From Clostridia bacterium (GTDB taxonomy: Bacteria > Bacillota > Clostridia > Christensenellales > UBA1242), in the NCBI GenBank assembly GCA_045534265.1, contig JAZSJH010000002.1, positions 24,473-88,472 of the forward strand: a stretch of DNA of 64,000 nucleotides, read 5' to 3'. A program made the position numbers and the translations under genes. Positions 49,732 through 59,527 of this stretch are shown here, piece after piece (position 1 is the first letter of the stretch; each line of letters starts with the position of its first letter). The notes beneath the pieces were generated by a model. That model was not told where the DNA came from, ran no database searches, and saw only the letters and a list, made by a program, of their open reading frames with translations.

Positions 49732-50538
49732 TTATATAGATTGTAAAATATTATAATTATTTGTTTCTTGATATTTCTTTATGTTTTGAAACAAATTGGT
49801 TTGCGAAAATATTGTTTGGTTAAAACATCCATGCAAACATTTTACAATTTGATCAATACTACACTCATTGCAGATTTTACTAAACAACATTATGAAGTCG
49901 TGACCATTTGTTATATATAACAATTCATTTTCAACAGTTAATACGGGTAACTTATGAAGAAGATTTAATCTGCTTTTATCTAAGATATTACTTGGGTTAT
50001 GTTTATTTATTTCATCAACAATGCCTGTATTCATAATATCTATATCTTTATTGTATAATCTATTTACTTTTATTCCGTCAAACTTAATATTCCAATTATT
50101 TTGTTCATTCAACATTCGTAATTTACTTATGAATTCTAATTGCTTTAATGTTGTTAATTTCAGATTTTGAGGAAGATCTTTGCCATTATAAAAATCGCAA
50201 TATAGTCTTTCAAAACAATCCTTAAACGATATAATCATCATTTCAGCACAACAAAAATCACAATAAAATATCCTTTTTAGTTTAGGCTTTTTAGAGTAAT
50301 CTTTATCTCTAATACCAATTATTCTGTTATTTTTAATAACTGAAACAATATTATCAACACTTGTTTTACTGCCAGAGTTAATTAAATGAACTTTCTCAGA
50401 AAATAAGGGTCTAAATAATTTTACATCATCAAGTCCTTCAACAAGCAAAAATAATTCATCTTTATTTGCTGTCATTAATAATTTAATTTCAGATATTATA
50501 TCAGATGGGGTTAAGTTATCTAAAATGGAGTTAACCAT
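49732..50538 (-). CDS. DUF4435/TOPRIM nuclease, PARIS AriB-like
   Basis: LLVEGLDD (TOPRIM Glu), GIRDKDY (DxD) and NGHD. Overlaps the upstream ATPase by 8 bp. Confidence 0.78.
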   Translation of the reverse strand: MVNSILDNLTPSDIISEIKLLMTANKDELFLLVEGLDDVKLFRPLFSEKVHLINSGSKTSVDNIVSVIKNNRIIGIRDKDYSKKPKLKRIFYCDFCCAEMMIISFKDCFERLYCDFYNGKDLPQNLKLTTLKQLEFISKLRMLNEQNNWNIKFDGIKVNRLYNKDIDIMNTGIVDEINKHNPSNILDKSRLNLLHKLPVLTVENELLYITNGHDFIMLFSKICNECSIDQIVKCLHGCFNQTIFSQTNLFQNIKKYQETNNYNILQSI

Positions 50539-51868
50539 TATATTGACCGCCTAAATCAATTTGTAAATCCCAATTATCTGATATAATTTGTGGCGAATGT
50601 GTTGCTATTATAATATTTAGTTTGTTATTTAATTTAACTATTTCCTTTAAGTCTTTTAAAATATTTTTTTGCCAAGCAATGTGAAGAGAAATCTCTGGTT
50701 CATCAATCATCAACAAATCAACATCTGACTCAAATATCAATTTATAGTATAGTACCAATATTTCTTGTTCTCCAGAAGATAATTTTGATAATTCCAAATC
50801 TTTATTATCATCAGAAACAACCTGAATACCATTGCTTCTTGAAATTTTTAATTTCTTAAACGTTAATTTGTTATTTATTATTTGTTCATATAAAGTTATT
50901 TTTTGAATTAAAGGTTCGAAAATATCATATTTCTTTTGATTATCATCAAAGAATATATATAAATCTTTTTCAAATTCATTTACATATTTTAGATTTGATG
51001 TGTTTCTAATAATACTTGCCAATTCATATTTATTTAAAAGAGCCTGCCTCTCTTTTAAACTTGTCAAATTTTTGTCAAAATCTTCACTAGACATTTTGCC
51101 ATTAGTTTCAAAAAGTCGTTTGATATACGTACTATCTAATTCGTTTGACAGTATAGAGTGTTTTGACATTACTCTTTCCATTTCTTGTTTTAAGCTGTTT
51201 GAACTTAATTTTAAAACTTTTATAAACTCTTTTTTAGATTCATCGTAACTTCGTCTATCTTCGGATATTTGTCTTTCTTCGAGAAGTCTCTGCTCTTTTA
51301 TGAAATTAACTTTTCCAATTTGTTTTTTTGCTTTTTTGATATCATTTAAAGCCTTCTCAAACGCTTCTAAAAGTTTTTTGTTTTTTTCATAGTATTTAAG
51401 ATTAATTAATATGTCAAATAAAAAAGGATCTGATATTTCTTCATCCCCATGTATTATATTATAACGTTTTAAGAAATCTTCGTCCACCAAGATTCTTTCA
51501 TTATTTCTTACATCGATTAACTCATGAGAACTTATAGGTCTTATATAAGGAGGAAGACCGTAGTGACGTCTTCGTTGCACCCTTAACGATTCTTCAACAT
51601 ATTTCAACTCAACATCATTAATTTTGAAAGTGTTTTGCAATTTTTTAATAATCAAATTGGAATTGTCAGAAAAACATAGTTTTAAACTATAAAAATTATA
51701 GTTTAAAAGTTTACTAAAATTGTTATTGCTGAATTCATTAATCATATTTAATATTGTTGACTTGCCATATCCATTTGGACCAGTAATAATTGTTATTCCA
51801 GAATTATTTAATGTTATGTCATAATTAAATCTTCCAAACAATTTTTTGATTTCTAACCTTTTTAACAT
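50531..51868 (-). CDS. AAA_15/AAA_21 ABC-type ATPase, PARIS AriA-like
   Basis: GPNGYGKST, LSSGEQE, MIDEPEISLH and ATHSP, with a long helical insert. Confidence 0.82.
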   Translation of the reverse strand: MLKRLEIKKLFGRFNYDITLNNSGITIITGPNGYGKSTILNMINEFSNNNFSKLLNYNFYSLKLCFSDNSNLIIKKLQNTFKINDVELKYVEESLRVQRRRHYGLPPYIRPISSHELIDVRNNERILVDEDFLKRYNIIHGDEEISDPFLFDILINLKYYEKNKKLLEAFEKALNDIKKAKKQIGKVNFIKEQRLLEERQISEDRRSYDESKKEFIKVLKLSSNSLKQEMERVMSKHSILSNELDSTYIKRLFETNGKMSSEDFDKNLTSLKERQALLNKYELASIIRNTSNLKYVNEFEKDLYIFFDDNQKKYDIFEPLIQKITLYEQIINNKLTFKKLKISRSNGIQVVSDDNKDLELSKLSSGEQEILVLYYKLIFESDVDLLMIDEPEISLHIAWQKNILKDLKEIVKLNNKLNIIIATHSPQIISDNWDLQIDLGGQYNG

Positions 51869-52124
51869 AATTCACCTCTTTTAGTCTATATTAATTATAG
51901 CATATAAATGTAAAAAATATATAAAATTTTAAAAAATATCAAGTATATCAAAAAAATCATTAATTTATGAGTGCTTGTTAAAATAATGCTTACATTTAGC
52001 AAACAAAAATCCACCCATACCATATTGGTACGAATGGACAAGATTGTGGCGGGACGAAGATCCCCAATTGCGTCATAAGTAGATATAATCAGAGTATTAT
52101 ATTAATAAAACCACTTGATTTAAC

Positions 52125-53447
52125 TTACTCTATATATTGAGAATTGATTCTAACAGGTAATCTGTTACGAGCTACACAAATTCCATTTTTGACAATGTAA
52201 CATTCAACATAGTGATCTCCATTAAAACTTGTTCGTTCGATTCTAGTTGAACTTCCTTTTATAATTTCCCCTCTAAGCATATTCTTTTTATAAGCTTCTA
52301 TCCCTGTGTTTTTTATTTTCCAATAAATATTATAAGGTTCTGGAACATTGCATTCTTGAATAAAAAATTCAAGTTTTCTTTTTATAGGGAGCCATAAACA
52401 TAAACTTAATAATTTTGGTCTGAAGCCATCTGCTGTTACAGTGCAATCGATTTTCAAATTATATTTTACATTTACAGGGAAAAGATTTTCTATAAACTGT
52501 TCATTATTAACAAAATTATATTGTCGCTGTGCATCTTGTAATACCAAATTCCTATATCCATTTGTTAAACTTGTAGCAAAATAGTTGCCAAACATGGCTT
52601 GATAAACAGTCTCGATTTTTAATTCATCATTATTAGCTTCTGCGAAAGATTTTAAATAACTAGCAGACTCTTTAATAAAGGCTCCCTTGCCTTTATCTGT
52701 AATTTCTTGAAAACTTCCAAGTGCATAAATTTTTGAATCAGTATCTTTTTTAGATAAAAATTCAAGAAAGGCGACTATTATTTCGTGAAAATCTGCAAAG
52801 CCATATGAATAAAATTGAGGATTGCTTTTAAAAAATGAATGAACTAATGTATCTATAAGCAAGCCACCAAAAACAAAGCCTGTATTATCTTTCCAAAGCC
52901 TTGTAAAATTACACAAAATAACAAAATTATTATTTGTTTCAATGTTTATATTTTTAGACTCATTTTGTTCAGGTGTTGGATTTGTGTTTTTCCAAGAACC
53001 ACCATTATTAGAATCTGCATATTTAAAACTGCCATCAAATTCAGAAAACACTGGCACTAAGTCAATTGAAAATCTATCAAAAGAGATAACGACAGCTTGA
53101 CCATCTCCTTTAATTTCGGTTCTTGGATATCTTTCAATTAAATATGATTTAACATCCTGTAATAGGGCGGATTGGCCATTGTTAGCATATTGGTCAAACC
53201 TTTCAAAAATCTCTTTAGGCAAAACAAAAAGCATATCAACGTCGCTTACTTGTTTTATTGCTGTTCCTCGACCTATAGATCCTACAACATGACAATGTTC
53301 TATTTCTTTGTCAAAATCCTCAATGGTATCGGCATAATAAGACTCATTTAGTTTCTTTGTTATATTCTTTATTGCAGAATCATAATCAGCGGTATTATCA
53401 AGATGAATTGCTGTGTATAAGTTGGAAAAAGTTTTTTCTCTATTCAT
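52125..53447 (-). CDS. SMODS/cGAS-DncV-like nucleotidyltransferase (CD-NTase) with a C-terminal AGS-C domain
   Basis: GSIGRGTAI..SDVD, IDLVP and WKNTNP. C-terminal YWKIKNTG..RGEI..ERTSFNGDHYVECY. Alternative start at 53468. Confidence 0.85.
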   Translation of the reverse strand: MNREKTFSNLYTAIHLDNTADYDSAIKNITKKLNESYYADTIEDFDKEIEHCHVVGSIGRGTAIKQVSDVDMLFVLPKEIFERFDQYANNGQSALLQDVKSYLIERYPRTEIKGDGQAVVISFDRFSIDLVPVFSEFDGSFKYADSNNGGSWKNTNPTPEQNESKNINIETNNNFVILCNFTRLWKDNTGFVFGGLLIDTLVHSFFKSNPQFYSYGFADFHEIIVAFLEFLSKKDTDSKIYALGSFQEITDKGKGAFIKESASYLKSFAEANNDELKIETVYQAMFGNYFATSLTNGYRNLVLQDAQRQYNFVNNEQFIENLFPVNVKYNLKIDCTVTADGFRPKLLSLCLWLPIKRKLEFFIQECNVPEPYNIYWKIKNTGIEAYKKNMLRGEIIKGSSTRIERTSFNGDHYVECYIVKNGICVARNRLPVRINSQYIE

Positions 53448-53937
53448 CTTGGAGTAGTTCTCCTTCAATATCTTTCTTAGCTAAAGAAACTGCTTTGTTA
53501 GAGGCGGATAATGAATTTTTACACAATGCATTATATTCATTATAAAAATTATCTCTTTTTAATAAAATTTCTTCATTGGTATATCTTTTTATTTTTATAT
53601 CTGTTAGAAAAACTTTCAAGTTGTTTCTTAAACATAAAAAGTCTAATGCGGAAGCCTTATGTTGTGATGCTAAAACATCATAATTTGTTGAAAGCGTAAT
53701 AATTGAAATAGTTAATGAAATAAATGAAATAACGGCACTTATAATTTTTAGTACAATTTCATTTATAAATATAGTGCTTAAAATTCCAGAAGATGTTAAT
53801 GATAATAAAATAATTGATAATACATTGAAAACAATTTGTTTTTTATGCAAGATATCACTTTCTTTTTCTTGAATTTTATGAGTCCAAACGACATTATTAT
53901 ATAATTCTCTTATGTTGCTTAAAGTTGTTTTATCCAT
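53440..53937 (-). CDS. SLATT-family 2-TM effector (CBASS type I effector-like)
   Basis: IRELYNNVVWTHKIQEK, two hydrophobic helices, then H...A..F..LR. Overlaps the CD-NTase start. Alternative start at 53952. Confidence 0.8.
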   Translation of the reverse strand: MDKTTLSNIRELYNNVVWTHKIQEKESDILHKKQIVFNVLSIILLSLTSSGILSTIFINEIVLKIISAVISFISLTISIITLSTNYDVLASQHKASALDFLCLRNNLKVFLTDIKIKRYTNEEILLKRDNFYNEYNALCKNSLSASNKAVSLAKKDIEGELLQDE

Positions 53938-54003
53938 AGTATATTTCTCCATACAAAGGATTATATCACAAATAGCAATTTATTACAATGTTTGAAGCAA
54001 AAA

Positions 54004-54603
54004 CTATATTAAATTTAGTGTTAAGTTTAAATTCTTATAAAAAGTGCTTCGGTTCATATTGAGAGATTGCAAGGCTTCGGCTAATGTAATCTCTTTTTTC
54101 TTGTATTGGTTTGCTATTTGTGAAAAGTTCGGTGGTATTTTAAGTTTTGGGCGACCCAAATGTTTGCCTTTTTCTTTTGCTATTCGTATTCCTTCAGCTT
54201 GTCGCTTCTTAATATTTTCTCTTTCGTTTTCAGCCACAAAAGAAAGGATTTGGAGAACTATATCACTAATAAATTTTCCAACCAAATTTTTACCTTCAGT
54301 TCGTGTGTCAAGCAGAGGCATATCAATAACATAAATATCAACATTCAAGCTATTAACCAAATCTCGCCACTCATCAATAATCATGTCGTAGTTTCTTCCA
54401 AGTCTATCAATACTTTTGATAATAAGCAAATCTCCGTCTTGCAAGATGGATTTTAGTTTTTGATAATTAGTTCTATCAAAATCTTTACCACTTTGTTTAT
54501 CAATAAATATATTTGAATTAGTTAGCCCTAAATTATACATATCAGCAAGTTGCCGATCTATATTTTGTTCTTTGGTGCTAACTCTTACATAACCATATTT
54601 CAT
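54004..54603 (-). CDS. Small serine recombinase (resolvase/invertase family)
   Basis: YGYVRVST (catalytic Ser), DRLGR, ERENI..RQ.EGI..AK..G.HLGRP and a C-terminal HTH (NRSTFYK). Confidence 0.93.
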   Translation of the reverse strand: MKYGYVRVSTKEQNIDRQLADMYNLGLTNSNIFIDKQSGKDFDRTNYQKLKSILQDGDLLIIKSIDRLGRNYDMIIDEWRDLVNSLNVDIYVIDMPLLDTRTEGKNLVGKFISDIVLQILSFVAENERENIKKRQAEGIRIAKEKGKHLGRPKLKIPPNFSQIANQYKKKEITLAEALQSLNMNRSTFYKNLNLTLNLI

Positions 54604-54634
54604 AATTTTGCACCCCCTTAATAATTATACCAAG

Positions 54635-54670
54635 AAAAAAAGACTTCACTTGCTTTAAGTGGAGTCTTTT
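54635..54670 (-). terminator. Intrinsic terminator facing left (possibly bidirectional) between the recombinase gene and the left recombination-like site
   Basis: A7-GACTTCACTT-gcttt-AAGTGGAGTC-T4. On the minus strand the stem is followed by U7. Confidence 0.75.
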
Positions 54671-54674
54671 CTAG

Positions 54675-54855
54675 TCCAAAAAGGTGTACCTTTGTGGATT
54701 TTTGAAAAAATATAAAGAAATATGAAAAATAGTTTTAAAATACACACAAAAATAAAATAAATGTGTTATAATGACTTTACAAGGTATTAAAAACAAGTTA
54801 AATACACAACAACTTTATGAATAAGTTGGAATGTATAAAGGTACACCTTTTAAGA
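54675..54855. repeat. Pair of inverted hix-like sites flanking a promoter (candidate invertible switch)
   Basis: Site L is TCCAAAAAGGT-GT-ACCTTTGTGGA (54675-54698). Site R is TGTATAAAGGT-AC-ACCTTTTAAGA (54832-54855). AAAAGGTGTACCTTT (54679-54693) is the exact reverse complement of 54837-54851. Confidence 0.8.
54762..54772 (+). promoter_or_regulatory. Extended -10 promoter inside the candidate invertible segment, pointing at the methyltransferase
   Basis: TGTGTTATAAT fits TRTGnTATAAT. No good -35 was found. Confidence 0.7.
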
Positions 54856-54871
54856 CAAATTAGGAGAAAAT

Positions 54872-56044
54872 ATGGCAACACAATCTTTTGATAATGCTAA
54901 AAAAAATAAAGCTGATGAATTTTATACTCAGCTTGTAGATATAGAAAAAGAATTAAAACATTATAAAGATCATTTTAAAGATAAAATAGTTTTTTGTAAT
55001 TGCGATGACCCATACGAGAGTAACTTCTTTAAATATTTTGCTATGAACTTTAACCATTTGGGATTAAAAAAATTAATAGCAACCTGTTATGATAGTTCGC
55101 CAATTGCTTATACACAATTAAATTTATTTGGTGAAGACAAATCTGTTCCCAATAATAATCGTCATCCATACAAAATTGAAATTAATGAAGTTAAAGATTA
55201 TAATGAAGATGGAGCGACAGATTTAGCCGATGTTGAATTTCTTTTAAAAAACAAGAAGAATACATTGAAATTGCTAAAAGAAAATGGAGATTTTCGTTCT
55301 AATGAGTGCATTGAACTTCTAAAACAATCTGATATTATTGTTACAAATCCACCATTTTCATTGTTTAGAGAATATGTTGCACAGTTAGAGTATTATAATA
55401 AAAAATATTTAATTATTGGAAATGTTAATGCTATAACATACAAGGAAATCTTTAAATTGTTTAAAGAAAACAGGATTTGGTTAGGACAAAGTATTCATAG
55501 CGGAGATAGAGAATTTAGAGTTCCAGATTATTATCCTTTACAGTCTGCTGGATTCAGGGTGGACGAAAATGGTACTAAATATATAAGAGTAAAAGGCGTA
55601 AGGTGGTTTACAAATTTAGATTATAAAGAAAGACACGAAGATATTATTTTATATAAAAACTATAATGAACTAGAATTTCCTTCATATCACAACTATGATG
55701 CCATCAATGTAGATAAAACAACTGATATACCATGTGATTTTAATGGCAGTATTGGAGTTCCAATAACCTTTTTAGACAAATACAATCCACAACAATTTGA
55801 AATAATAGCTTTAGGCATCACTGGAAGTATAGATTTTACAAGTGAAAGAAAAATGGAAATATTAGATAAAAACGGTAACTCTACTGGTAAATATACAATA
55901 AATGCTAAGGGAACTTTGTATAGAAAATATAACCCTGAGCATGACACAAAGCCACCTGCATTTAAAGATGTTGAGACAGGAGAACTTTATTCAAGTATTT
56001 ATGCAAGAATTATTATAAAAAGGAGAACTCAAAGTGGAAATTAA
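54872..56044 (+). CDS. EcoRI-family adenine-specific DNA methyltransferase
   Basis: AKKNKADEFYT, VFCNCDDP, GDFRS.EC, IVTNPPFSLFREY (NPPF catalytic motif) and GVPITFLDKYNP. Confidence 0.88.
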   Translation: MATQSFDNAKKNKADEFYTQLVDIEKELKHYKDHFKDKIVFCNCDDPYESNFFKYFAMNFNHLGLKKLIATCYDSSPIAYTQLNLFGEDKSVPNNNRHPYKIEINEVKDYNEDGATDLADVEFLLKNKKNTLKLLKENGDFRSNECIELLKQSDIIVTNPPFSLFREYVAQLEYYNKKYLIIGNVNAITYKEIFKLFKENRIWLGQSIHSGDREFRVPDYYPLQSAGFRVDENGTKYIRVKGVRWFTNLDYKERHEDIILYKNYNELEFPSYHNYDAINVDKTTDIPCDFNGSIGVPITFLDKYNPQQFEIIALGITGSIDFTSERKMEILDKNGNSTGKYTINAKGTLYRKYNPEHDTKPPAFKDVETGELYSSIYARIIIKRRTQSGN

Positions 56045-57143
56045 GCTATTTGATATAAAAATTAAAGATGTTTTTAATGGGTATGTAGACAGCCAAGAAA
56101 ATGGAGTTGTTGGTTTTGGTGGCAAATTAAATATTCGTCCTGCATTTCAAAGAGAGTTTGTTTATAAAGAAAAACAAAGAGATGCTGTTATAGAAACTGT
56201 AAACAAAGGATTTCCTTTAAATGTAATGTATTGGGCAGAAACTAAAGATGGAAACTATGAACTTTTAGACGGACAACAAAGAACCATAAGTATTTGCCAA
56301 TACTTAAATGGAGACTTTTCACTAAATAGCAGAGCATTCCATAACCTTACAAGAGATGAACAAGAAAAAATTGAAAATTATGAATTGAAAGTTTATATCT
56401 GCAAAGGAACTGAAAGTGAAAAATTAGACTGGTTTAAAATTATAAATATAGCAGGTGTTCAATTAAAGGAACAGGAATTAAGAAATGCTATTTATACTGG
56501 TCCTTGGTTATCTGATGCAAAAAGATATTTTAGTAAAAATGGATGCGTTGCATATAGAATTGGTAATAAATATCTAAATGGTGAAGTTAATAGACAAGAT
56601 TATTTAGAATCTGCTATTGAGTGGCTAGCAAGTATAGATAATAAAAAGATTGAAGATTATATGTCTGAACATCAACACGATTCTCATGCAACTCCACTTT
56701 GGCAATATTTTCAAAATGTAATAAATTGGGTTGAAACAATATTCCCTCATTATAGAAAAGAAATGAAAGGTTTACAATGGGGTTTGATGTACAATAAGTA
56801 TCATGCAAGTAATTACAATCCTCAGGAACTAGAATCAAAAATAGCTGAATTAATGCAGGATGATGATATTACAAAAAGATCTGGCGTCTACGAATATTTG
56901 CTTAGCGGAAATGAAAAGTTTTTAAATATTAGAGCTTTTACTGATAATGAAAAAAGAAAAGTATATGAAAGACAAAAAGGTATTTGCCCTCATTGTGTAA
57001 AAGAAAAAAGAGCAAAAACAACCTATCTTTTAGAAGAAATGGAAGCAGACCACATTACCCCATGGTGTGAGGGTGGCAAAACAAACATTGATAATTGTCA
57101 AATGCTTTGCAAGGAACACAATAGAAGAAAATCTAGTCTTTAA
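56034..57143 (+). CDS. DUF262 (ParB/GmrS-like) + C-terminal HNH endonuclease
   Basis: IRPAFQREFVY, LLDGQQRT and FKIIN..G. C-terminal CPHC...EADHITPW..GG.T...NCQMLC..HN. GTG start with RBS, overlapping the MTase stop. Confidence 0.87.
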   Translation: MEIKLFDIKIKDVFNGYVDSQENGVVGFGGKLNIRPAFQREFVYKEKQRDAVIETVNKGFPLNVMYWAETKDGNYELLDGQQRTISICQYLNGDFSLNSRAFHNLTRDEQEKIENYELKVYICKGTESEKLDWFKIINIAGVQLKEQELRNAIYTGPWLSDAKRYFSKNGCVAYRIGNKYLNGEVNRQDYLESAIEWLASIDNKKIEDYMSEHQHDSHATPLWQYFQNVINWVETIFPHYRKEMKGLQWGLMYNKYHASNYNPQELESKIAELMQDDDITKRSGVYEYLLSGNEKFLNIRAFTDNEKRKVYERQKGICPHCVKEKRAKTTYLLEEMEADHITPWCEGGKTNIDNCQMLCKEHNRRKSSL

Positions 57144-57369
57144 TTAAAAACTTAATAACAAATTTGATAATTTGGTCAACTTCTAATGAATGGAGTTGAC
57201 CTTTTTCTTGCTCTAAATAAAAGTATTCTTTCCATTTATCTTTGGAAAATTCTTTCACAAAGTTGTCTTCCACATCTACAACTTTAATTAGTTGTAATTT
57301 ATATTCCGCAGACATCTTTTCTTCATAGTATTTTTCTTTTATCATATCGGCTAAAACTTTATTATCCAT
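57133..57369 (-). CDS. Small hypothetical protein
   Basis: 78 aa with RBS GAGGTG. Its 3' end overlaps the HNH gene stop convergently. Confidence 0.55.
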   Translation of the reverse strand: MDNKVLADMIKEKYYEEKMSAEYKLQLIKVVDVEDNFVKEFSKDKWKEYFYLEQEKGQLHSLEVDQIIKFVIKFLIKD

Positions 57370-57546
57370 AAACACCTCTCATTAAGTCGGTTTGTGTTTT
57401 AACTCTGTTTGAAAAGAAAAGCAAGTCATTTCAAAAAATAATTCAAAAATACTCATTGCCTCTCTTTTTGAGATAAAAGAAAATCTTATGGTATGCAAAA
57501 ACAAAAAATAAAAACACCACTTATTATAAGTAGTGTTTTATAGAAG

Positions 57547-58281
57547 TTAAAACTCTATATCTGAATCTTCAATTTCTTGTTTGTGCACAATATAGTTTCT
57601 AAATCTTTTATCATTCATTAAATCGTTGATCATATTTTCTTGGTTGTGCATTTTTTCTTTAATTATAGTATTTTCTTGCATCATATTTTCTTTCATTCTT
57701 TCAAGTCTAAATAATTGTCTTTTTAACATTTCTGTCTCTCGGGTTTTTTCTCTTAAATCTTTCAAGAGCGCAGTTCTTTGTTCTTCCGACTTTTCTTTTG
57801 CAATTTTTGATTCTAAATCCTCTTGTTCTTTTTCTCCTTTTTCAATTTTTTCTTTGACTTCTTTTTTATTATGGTCAAACTTTTCTAAGTTGGAGTTAAT
57901 GTTAGCAAGTTTTTCACCAAAACTTGCTTCAATTTTACCTAGGGTTACAGATACTTCTTTCATAATTTCATAAGAACGCATATAATAAGCGGAGCTTGAT
58001 TTTTCAGATTGAATATAGAACATTATAGATAATGCAATAGAGAAAAACGATAATAACACTGCTAGTAGAGTTTCCATTGTAAAACTCTGTTTATACATCA
58101 TATAGCAACAAAAAGCTAAAAAACCGACAGATGCCAATCCAACAAAAATATAAGTGATTACTTTCCAAGCAGGTGTCTTTTTCTGTTTTATTTTTTCTAA
58201 CTCTAATTGCTTGTCAAACAATTCTTTTAAAATTTCTATTTTGTCTTTTTGCTCTTTTGATTCAGTTTTCTTGTCGTCCAT
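57547..58281 (-). CDS. Hypothetical 2-TM + coiled-coil protein
   Basis: Two N-proximal hydrophobic helices followed by a long E/K-rich heptad region. RBS AAGGAG. Confidence 0.7.
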   Translation of the reverse strand: MDDKKTESKEQKDKIEILKELFDKQLELEKIKQKKTPAWKVITYIFVGLASVGFLAFCCYMMYKQSFTMETLLAVLLSFFSIALSIMFYIQSEKSSSAYYMRSYEIMKEVSVTLGKIEASFGEKLANINSNLEKFDHNKKEVKEKIEKGEKEQEDLESKIAKEKSEEQRTALLKDLREKTRETEMLKRQLFRLERMKENMMQENTIIKEKMHNQENMINDLMNDKRFRNYIVHKQEIEDSDIEF

Positions 58282-58469: not shown

Positions 58470-58786
58470 ATACGCCATATTTAGTTATTTTGCTTTTTCA
58501 AGCATAACTAATTATACATATTTTTTGAGATAATGCAAGTGTTTTTTAGAAAAAATATAAAAAATTTAGTTGTATATATAAAAAGCTTTGTTTGTTTATA
58601 GCTTTTTTGCATGCTTAAGTGATTTTAGTTTGTTTTTTTGTATAAGTTTTTTATTGTTGGGAGAGGGGTGTTTGTCAAATTTGCAACACTCTTACGTTTT
58701 TTGTTGTAAATATGATGATTAATATCTTAAAATGTTTTTGAGAAGAGCATAAAATGTGTTAAAATACTTACACTGAGGAGTTGTTG

Positions 58787-59527
58787 ATGGCAAAAAGAAA
58801 AACTAAAGGTAGAAAGGCGTGGTTTAGGGGCTTAAAAGCGTTTTTAAGGCTTTTTATTCGAAAACCTGAGTATTTATTGCTCGGTGATGAATTTGTTGAT
58901 AGAAGCGTGATTTTGAGCAATCACGTGGGGTCTTTGGGCCCACTAACTCACGAGCTTTATTTTCCAAAACGTTTTAGGTTTTGGGGTACTTATGAAATGA
59001 ACTCTGGGCTTAAGTCTGTGTACATATATTTATCTCAAATATATTTTTATCAAAAGAAACACAAAAGCAAATCAATGTCTAAATTTTTGGGGTTTATTGT
59101 TGCTCCGTTTGCGAATATGTTTTATAAGGGGCTAGAGTTGATTTCAACATATAGAGATCATAGATTGAGAAAGACTTTAGATGAAAGCATAAAAACTTTG
59201 CAAGATAATCAGAGCTTAATAATTTTTCCAGAAAATAGTTCTGATGGATATCATGACAAATTAAAAGAGTGTTTTGCTGGATTTGTTGTTTTGGGTAAAG
59301 TATGTCTAAAGCAAGGAATTGATTTGCCGGTATATACAAGCTATTTTCGTAAAAAAGAGAAGGTTGTTGTTGTAGACAAGCCAATAATGATGTCAAAGCT
59401 TTTGGGCTCGGGACTAGATAAGAAACAAATTGCAGAAAATATACGCACCAGAATGAACGAACTAGGCAATATGGATATAACTGGTCTTGTGAAAAAGGGA
59501 AATAAGAAAAATAAAAAAACATTATGA
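58787..59527 (+). CDS. PlsC-like acyltransferase-fold protein
   Basis: ILSNH block I, IIFPE block III, GF..L and LPVY. The Asp of HX4D is replaced by Gly. Confidence 0.6.
   Translation: MAKRKTKGRKAWFRGLKAFLRLFIRKPEYLLLGDEFVDRSVILSNHVGSLGPLTHELYFPKRFRFWGTYEMNSGLKSVYIYLSQIYFYQKKHKSKSMSKFLGFIVAPFANMFYKGLELISTYRDHRLRKTLDESIKTLQDNQSLIIFPENSSDGYHDKLKECFAGFVVLGKVCLKQGIDLPVYTSYFRKKEKVVVVDKPIMMSKLLGSGLDKKQIAENIRTRMNELGNMDITGLVKKGNKKNKKTL

Follow-up and report, generated by a model that had tools for sequence, protein, structure and literature searches.

Invertible promoters, Mpi-type promoter flipping by serine recombinases and phase-variable restriction-modification (R-M) systems are each already known, and it is their combination at the locus described here that is new in the literature searched. 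Mpi of Bacteroides fragilis is a serine recombinase which flips the short promoter segments of capsule loci, acting in trans on many loci. The segments inverted by Hin, Gin, Cin and Pin are 1-4 kb in size, contain the recombinase gene as well as an enhancer, and need Fis. The Sin, Tn552 Bin3 and beta-type resolvases of the Firmicutes resolve directly repeated res sites which possess an accessory sub-site, and fimS with FimB/FimE is a promoter switch operated by tyrosine recombinases. As for R-M systems, their known phase variation consists mainly of type I hsdS shufflons and of repeat-tract slippage in type III mod genes (phasevarions). The locus in question lies in a 64,000-nucleotide stretch, here called the window, of contig JAZSJH010000002.1 from the Clostridia bacterium assembly GCA_045534265.1. 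With a probability of roughly 0.8, we consider it to be a programmed invertible-promoter ON/OFF switch of a Type II R-M operon, operated by the adjacent serine recombinase. Its features, in window coordinates, are as follows.

54004-54603, minus strand: gene of a small serine recombinase of 199 amino acids (PF00239 Resolvase, E 1.7e-27), the proposed invertase, situated outside the invertible segment
54624-54632, minus strand: the recombinase's own extended -10, TGGTATAAT, as read in the sequence
54633-54670, minus strand: predicted terminator hairpin, followed by U7 (minus strand) or T4 (plus strand)
54675-54698, strand not applicable: crossover site L, TCCAAAAAGGT-GT-ACCTTTGTGGA, with 11-bp arms and its GT core at 54686-54687
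54688-54842, strand not applicable: invertible segment, 155 bp from core to core, assembled with its promoter towards the methylase (ON)
54764-54772, plus strand: extended -10 TGTTATAAT inside the segment, without a -35 match, the putative switch promoter
54832-54855, strand not applicable: crossover site R, TGTATAAAGGT-AC-ACCTTTTAAGA, with 11-bp arms and its AC core at 54843-54844
54862-54866, plus strand: AGGAG ribosome-binding site of the methylase gene, whose ATG is at 54872
54872-56044, plus strand: Type II adenine DNA methyltransferase of the EcoRI-methylase family, 390 amino acids, first gene of the operon
56034-57143, plus strand: DUF262 (GmrSD_N) and HNH nuclease (PF03235, PF01844), 369 amino acids, putative Type II restriction enzyme

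Like Mpi, the enzyme of this locus is a serine recombinase of about 200 amino acids associated with a promoter segment of less than 250 bp, short inverted repeats and what would be ON/OFF control of a downstream operon. Unlike Mpi, which serves many loci in trans, it is present as one recombinase with one adjoining pair of sites in the genome. The cargo is an R-M system where that of Mpi is surface polysaccharide, and the protein reaches 48 bits with the Mpi family model (NF009949), well short of its cut-off of 272. The host also differs, belonging to a small-genome Firmicute lineage whose relatives are metagenome-assembled genomes (MAGs) labelled uncultured Clostridia, Christensenellales or Bacilli. 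The crossover sites resemble hix and gix sites in possessing imperfect palindromic arms around an asymmetric 2-bp core, with inverted cores, and the Hin segment likewise carries a promoter; however, in contrast to the Hin, Gin, Cin and Pin systems, the segment is just 155 bp and the recombinase gene is found outside it. Sin/Bin3 is the closest sequence relative of solved structure, with catalytic residues common to both, but unlike the Sin-type res systems there are two simple sites with inverted cores, and inversion products were observed. With known phase-variable R-M systems the locus would share a stochastic, heritable and reversible change, brought about by recombination or slippage. Those systems alter specificity or break a reading frame, mostly through tyrosine recombinases, whereas here an intact two-gene Type II system appears to be switched via its promoter. 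The fimS and Clostridioides difficile switches also have an invertible promoter between inverted repeats beside a recombinase, although recombinase class and chemistry differ.

Mpi-driven promoter inversions are cited in a review (PMC11868660), in which tyrosine-type promoter switches of C. difficile are also mentioned. Coding-sequence inversions in type IIG, BREX and DISARM methylase genes are among the subjects of two further papers (Milman et al., 2023, PMC9881135; Huang et al., 2020, PMC7672463). The discussion section of another (PMC10333322) goes as far as suggesting that invertible promoters might control methylases. A preprint (PMC11741434) counts invertons within 2 kb of type I-III R-M genes, with a legend describing rearranged methylase gene fragments. 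The literature searched contained no account of a Type II R-M operon placed under an invertible promoter that has a dedicated serine recombinase, while the supplements of inverton surveys, lying outside this search, may list such loci. With that reservation, the view taken in a preliminary description of this DNA, made from its sequence alone, that the arrangement was previously undescribed still holds.

The preliminary description had reported two 24-bp palindromes of arm-core-arm structure between the recombinase and methylase genes, mutually inverted and identical at 19 of 24 positions, with 15 bp perfect and cores 157 bp apart. The sites read as it had them. A repeat search returned the L/R pair as an inverted repeat of 27 nt, 81% complementary and with cores spaced 157 bp, and a hand count of site L against reverse-complemented site R gave the same 19/24 identity and 15-bp perfect run. 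At one mismatch or less, the core pattern has two matches in the window with 0.34 expected. It could be supposed that these are chance palindromes and that the evidence of inversion given below consists of assembly artefacts, as the region is AT-rich, two motif matches are reached in 5 of 100 shuffles of the window, and assemblers can be confused by short inverted repeats. We hold this to be highly improbable, since the perfect repeat of 15 bp is below assembly word sizes and the exact core motif is found at only two places in the whole 1,204,167-base genome, namely sites L and R (the reversed control pattern being found at one). Neither a third sub-site nor a transposase was seen near the sites when the window genes, protein families and repeats were examined.

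The flipped form of this same locus was identified in assembled (Logan) contigs from animal-gut metagenomes, of which four runs from four studies were compared (X1, X4, X5, and X6); runs sharing few sequence words with the window were left aside, also as regards habitat. A 455-nt contig of X6 (record 28) has 54845->54679 of the minus strand joined to 54852->55139 of the plus strand; its methylase side differs from the window at 1 of 288 letters, and 15 letters are compatible with either side. In X1, a contig of 503 nt (record 5) has the recombinase side (54352-54693) joined to the reversed segment, while another of 2440 nt extends over the methylase gene (record 7; 12 differences in 1064). Before position 54837 this second contig and one contig of X4 possess the same 15 letters, which correspond in reverse complement to 54694-54708 (inner flank, site L). 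A second X4 contig continues beyond 54693 with 8 letters, 7 of them agreeing with site R's inner flank once this is reverse-complemented. With X5, contigs end at both sites; contig breaks of this kind only suggest mixed orientations within a population. The locus exists flipped in the metagenome samples and the window holds its ON form, so that the opposite orientation of the segment, which the preliminary description had proposed to look for, is represented by flipped junctions in X1, X4, and X6. Independent assemblies from several studies and collections agree base for base on the two junction forms, which again speaks against an artefact of assembly.

Homologous cassettes in relatives were examined next to this. 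When 201 genomes belonging to the family were searched at the DNA level, some match was obtained in 80, mostly short and AT-rich; 30 loci were read, to which 4 metagenome loci from a pattern scan and 13 further regions were added. Being related, the genomes are non-independent samples. A recombinase homologue with 57-85% protein identity is held by 19 of the 30 family loci, and the order of the cassette is constant: recombinase gene, its -10, hairpin with T-run, site, inner segment of 112-202 bp, site, ribosome-binding site, and cargo. Both sites are present in 17 rows, which represent 16 distinct loci (L113 being the same as L117). One TGnTATAAT (at most one mismatch) is found on one strand only in 16 of the 17 rows, pointing towards the cargo in seven (ON) and away from it in nine (OFF). 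Among cassettes with diverged sites, read by eye, L026 is ON and L024 and L120 are OFF, with L005 adding one OFF junction.

Particularly close pairs allow the exchange to be followed to the base. L004 (ON) and L006 (OFF) are 95.3% identical in the left flank and 92.7% in the right (600 nt each), while their inner segments are 74% identical in the forward direction and 90.7% (161 nt) when one is reverse-complemented; the same comparison of L004 with L116 gave 93.7 / 90.5 / 94.4%. In the OFF loci, the inner arm of each site reads as the reverse complement of the other site's inner arm in the ON loci, the outcome expected if strands are exchanged at the central dinucleotide. The two cores are complementary in every one of the 17 rows, being GT/AC, AC/GT or TT/AA, and their alignment is always inverted and never direct. 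In L007, with TT/AA, both cores have changed together, a compensatory change that is hard to reconcile with chance palindromes. The comparison of homologous loci put forward in the preliminary description has accordingly given both orientations, with exact half-site exchange.

All 8 listed site pairs adjoin a recombinase homologue. Single motif matches are about as common across the family as those of the reversed control, for which reason pairs alone were used, and 10 of the 13 extra motif places fetched, having a single motif and no recombinase, were set aside as chance matches. The metagenome pattern scan gave 4 loci, none of them with the methylase cargo of the window. In a recombinase-profile scan of genome contigs, covering 80 of at least 599 relatives, most were 53-59% identical and had no site motif upstream; such distant relatives are uninformative with regard to this switch. 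No regularity suggestive of helical phasing was apparent by eye in the spacing of the sites (126-216 bp).

In L008, L009, L010, L113, L115, and L117 a stretch of about 140 nt lies between the start codon of the recombinase and its -10, which would constitute a long leader. An Rfam scan of three relatives' loci assigned neither the switch nor this leader to an RNA family. An S-adenosylmethionine (SAM) riboswitch is present at L009:877-965 (47.7 bits, above the gathering score), upstream of the recombinase locus and unrelated to the switch. Contig G088:C4 starts exactly at a site-R core, and here (L118:1-120) a site R of the window type precedes what is left of a half-site of diverged type, beyond which lies a SNF2-helicase cargo. 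This chimeric junction gives the impression of one cassette grafted onto another. The partner contig of L118, L005, ends inside the flipped segment.

At its own locus and in homologous cassettes, the segment occurs in nature in both orientations, with exchange exactly at the cores. Such inversion could nevertheless be a rare evolutionary accident at operators, or at the res-site remnants of a mobile element, in which case the R-M operon would not be phase-variable. The sites do lie between divergent genes, like res sites and operators, the best solved relative of the recombinase is the Sin resolvase, and both orientations have yet to be seen in a single sample, the data being contigs. We regard an accident as unlikely. 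The orientations are split 7 to 9 and differ between loci whose flanks are 91-95% identical, and in four genomes (G105, G021, G100, and G088) contigs begin or end precisely at a site, which is the behaviour expected of assemblers faced with mixed orientations, though not proof of them. Moreover, directly oriented cores occur in none of the 17 rows, the sites always bracket a single strong -10, a cargo gene without its own promoter always comes next, and neither a transposase nor a third sub-site was seen.

The recombinase gene is present as a single copy in the genome and lies 72 nt from site L. Ser9, the catalytic serine, is invariant across 12 relatives together with Arg7, Asp66, Arg67, and Arg70. 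The closest solved structure is that of Sin/Bin3 (2r0q; E 2.5e-31, residues 3-160), and gamma-delta (1.7e-19) and the Tn3 resolvase are also nearer than Gin (~1e-12). Two groups named in the preliminary description as established parallels do not accommodate the protein. Membership of the Hin/Gin lineage was ruled out by the far better match to Sin, and that of an Mpi family equivalog by the low score against NF009949 together with the two core-motif places in the genome. Nearest to Sin, far from Gin and below the Mpi cut-off, the protein would therefore be a recombinase of invertase-like action which falls outside both known invertase families. That it performs the inversion is suggested by the presence of one such gene and two sites in the genome and by the listed site pairs, all of which adjoin a homologue.

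The regulatory elements around the segment agree with those in the preliminary description, which had named a consensus extended -10 between the sites aimed at the methylase, a methylase ribosome-binding site directly beyond site R, a U7 terminator on the minus strand beyond site L, and a separate extended -10 for the recombinase. The arms of the hairpin (54638-54651 and 54657-54670) are 93% complementary and a minus-strand run of seven T then follows; folded as RNA, the hairpin has a free energy of -15.6 kcal/mol (z -2.29). Hairpin and T-run are kept at the same position in 15 of 16 relatives, with differing stem sequences, and TTGGTATAAT follows the terminator in the cassettes of 11 of 16 relatives. 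Just 16 nt separate site R from the methylase ATG, which leaves the operon without room for a fixed promoter. The -10 of the segment is probably the promoter of the operon, and its direction bears out the description of the assembled orientation as ON.

A further possibility is that inversion is programmed but has its main output elsewhere, either in tuning of the recombinase by read-through or in a small RNA made from the flipped promoter. In the OFF state the promoter does face the recombinase gene, and the terminator, whose strength is a prediction, may leak. We consider such an output decidedly unlikely, because the 16 nt between site R and the methylase start leave no other promoter for the operon, while the conserved terminator and the separate promoter of the recombinase argue for insulation over coupling. 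An Rfam scan of window positions 53000-58000 gave no RNA family, and very different cargos are found at the same position behind site R.

The methylase matches PF13651 (E 1.2e-146) over profile positions 2-344 of 345, as well as the PADLOC model MTase_II (E 8.8e-122). The preliminary description of its partner as a DUF262-HNH nuclease was correct as to domains and can be refined, for the protein also matches the Type II restriction-enzyme model of PADLOC (REase_II, E 5.6e-146) at full length, residues 1-367 aligning with positions 1-370 of 372. Its gene has a GTG start and overlaps the methylase gene by 11 nt. By profile match, the cargo is a complete, adjacent Type II R-M pair.

Cargos of other cassettes are of a similar nature. 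The 10 proteins downstream of 8 other family cassettes all match DNA-methylase, R-M or helicase families, 8 of them above Pfam cut-offs (Eco57I, N6_Mtase, SNF2/ResIII) and 2 as sub-threshold MmeI-methylase matches. Beside recombinases of 62-66% identity from other lineages, six genes were identified, these being two D12 methylases, one Eco57I/N6 enzyme, one SNF2 helicase, a BspA-type leucine-rich-repeat protein and a protein without family; among these six loci an inverted-repeat pair is present at L036, L038, L040, and L062 only. Recombinases in this identity range are found at L036, L040, L062, L066, and L049 in MAGs labelled Bacilli, Acholeplasmataceae or Anaeroplasma, where the cargos are D12 (Dam-class) methylases, an Eco57I-type enzyme, a BspA-type leucine-rich-repeat protein, and a lipoprotein-like gene. 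No inverted-repeat pair was seen at L049 and L066. The idea that the cargo methylase methylates the crossover site was dropped, as very different cargos share the same site.

Orthologues of the window operon in four other genera are without the serine cassette. Five such loci (L012, L013, L016, L130, and L131) have instead a divergent tyrosine recombinase of 311-312 amino acids (PF00589) with inverted repeats of its own, and the -10 of their segment points away from the methylase (L012:1152-1510, L016:1141-1501). L015:1-145, on a contig starting inside the segment, is the same segment reverse-complemented, with its -10 towards the methylase. In these genera the orthologous cargo sits behind a second, different invertible promoter, as judged from the arrangement of its sequence, and this lends independent support to a programmed promoter switch at the window locus. 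Two other methylase orthologues (L021:1100-1513 and L022:1060-1458) are accompanied by what by eye is a divergent small gene resembling a helix-turn-helix regulator, and have a fixed TTGACA...TATAAT promoter with adjacent palindromes. Here the same cargo seems to be regulated in the conventional manner, by a controller protein.

The proposed switch would operate as follows. A recombinase dimer would bind each 24-bp site and L and R would synapse, after which both sites would be cut at the central dinucleotide and, by rotation and strand exchange, the 155-bp segment would flip. With near-palindromic arms, the asymmetric core alone sets the polarity of sites for serine recombinases, and inverted cores permit inversion only. 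In the ON state, as assembled, transcription starting at the extended -10 would cross site R, reading first the methylase gene and after it that of the nuclease. Once turned to OFF, the promoter would fire towards the recombinase gene and be stopped at the hairpin terminator, leaving the R-M operon silent or nearly so. Expression of the recombinase, to judge by the conservation of its own promoter, would be independent of the state of the switch, and the overlapping GTG start may delay or lower synthesis of the nuclease. Switching within a population may well be frequent, and its benefit would possibly be bet-hedging between defence and the cost, or the barrier to uptake, of an R-M system. The ON/OFF switching of the methylase/nuclease module envisaged in the preliminary description is supported by the flipped form of the locus itself, both orientations in orthologues, the conserved promoter, terminator and recombinase promoter, and the full Type II pair as cargo; the phasevarion-like effect on the methylome also raised there would be a possible consequence.

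A number of points weigh against this reading. A search of sequencing runs turned up none of RNA that contained the stretch, and the functions of promoter and terminator are predicted ones; a generic promoter/terminator scan listed neither the switch promoter, which has no -35 match, nor the hairpin, and for this reason both assignments rest on conservation. The same scan gave a weak promoter-like site on the minus strand within the segment (54738-54709; 9/12), from which some expression in the OFF state could occur. The nearest sequence relative of the recombinase is a resolvase (Sin) and no known invertase. Among the cassettes, L010 has no recognisable -10 and the orientation of L019 was called from a match with one mismatch, and as the differences in orientation are among species representatives, rare fixed events are possible in principle. 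No contig bridging the ON junction was present among the metagenome pieces listed (184 others being outside the listing), and the ON form of this locus is that of the window assembly alone. ON and OFF were never found together in one sample, contigs being the data. The X6 contig has a depth of 3.6, and caution applies to joints placed at less than 95% likeness. Finally, a complete Type II R-M system is usually thought too dangerous to switch, as turning it ON attacks an unmethylated genome and turning it OFF leads to post-segregational killing. Toggling of the full pair should be dangerous in both directions, and how the cell would survive it is not explained by the data.

The locus lies in a defence island, as two further systems adjoin it on the left (window 49732-53952). 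A nucleotide cyclase (SMODS and AGS_C domains, 52125-53468) and an overlapping 2TM SLATT effector (53440-53952) form a CBASS-like pair, while an AriA/PtuA-like ATPase (50531-51868) overlaps a partner of 268 amino acids (49732-50538) with no family match. To the right of the R-M operon there are two open reading frames, 57547-58281 (minus strand) and 58781-59527 (plus strand), coding for 244 and 248 amino acids with no Pfam match above threshold; one of them has a faint match to the PADLOC model LmuB (E 3e-4).

Taken more broadly, the cassette may be a portable one, in which a Sin-like serine invertase and the promoter belonging to it are combined with an invertible extended -10 and a bidirectional terminator. 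It may have been grafted repeatedly before DNA-methylase and restriction genes in small-genome gut Firmicutes and their neighbours. Its cargos would include EcoRI-type Type II R-M, Eco57I/MmeI-type enzymes, D12 (Dam-class) methylases, SNF2 helicases and, occasionally, a surface protein. The same Type II operon would independently have come under a tyrosine switch in sister genera, pointing to strong selection for stochastic ON/OFF Type II R-M. We hold the case for and against this wider reading to be evenly balanced. It implies some means of surviving re-activation on an unmethylated chromosome, to which the leading position of the methylase gene in the operon and the overlap of the nuclease gene, with its GTG start, may contribute.

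The locus provides a concrete and clonable system for asking how cells survive the toggling of an R-M system, as well as a compact 155-bp inversion module of a serine recombinase from a resolvase-like lineage. Defence repertoires and methylomes inferred from the consensus sequences of MAGs may be silent or heterogeneous in the population, and such switches may explain assembly breaks at their loci. Cassettes of this design are found in many uncultured gut bacteria, where the methylase cargo varies, and a second, unrelated switch has been acquired by the same cargo.

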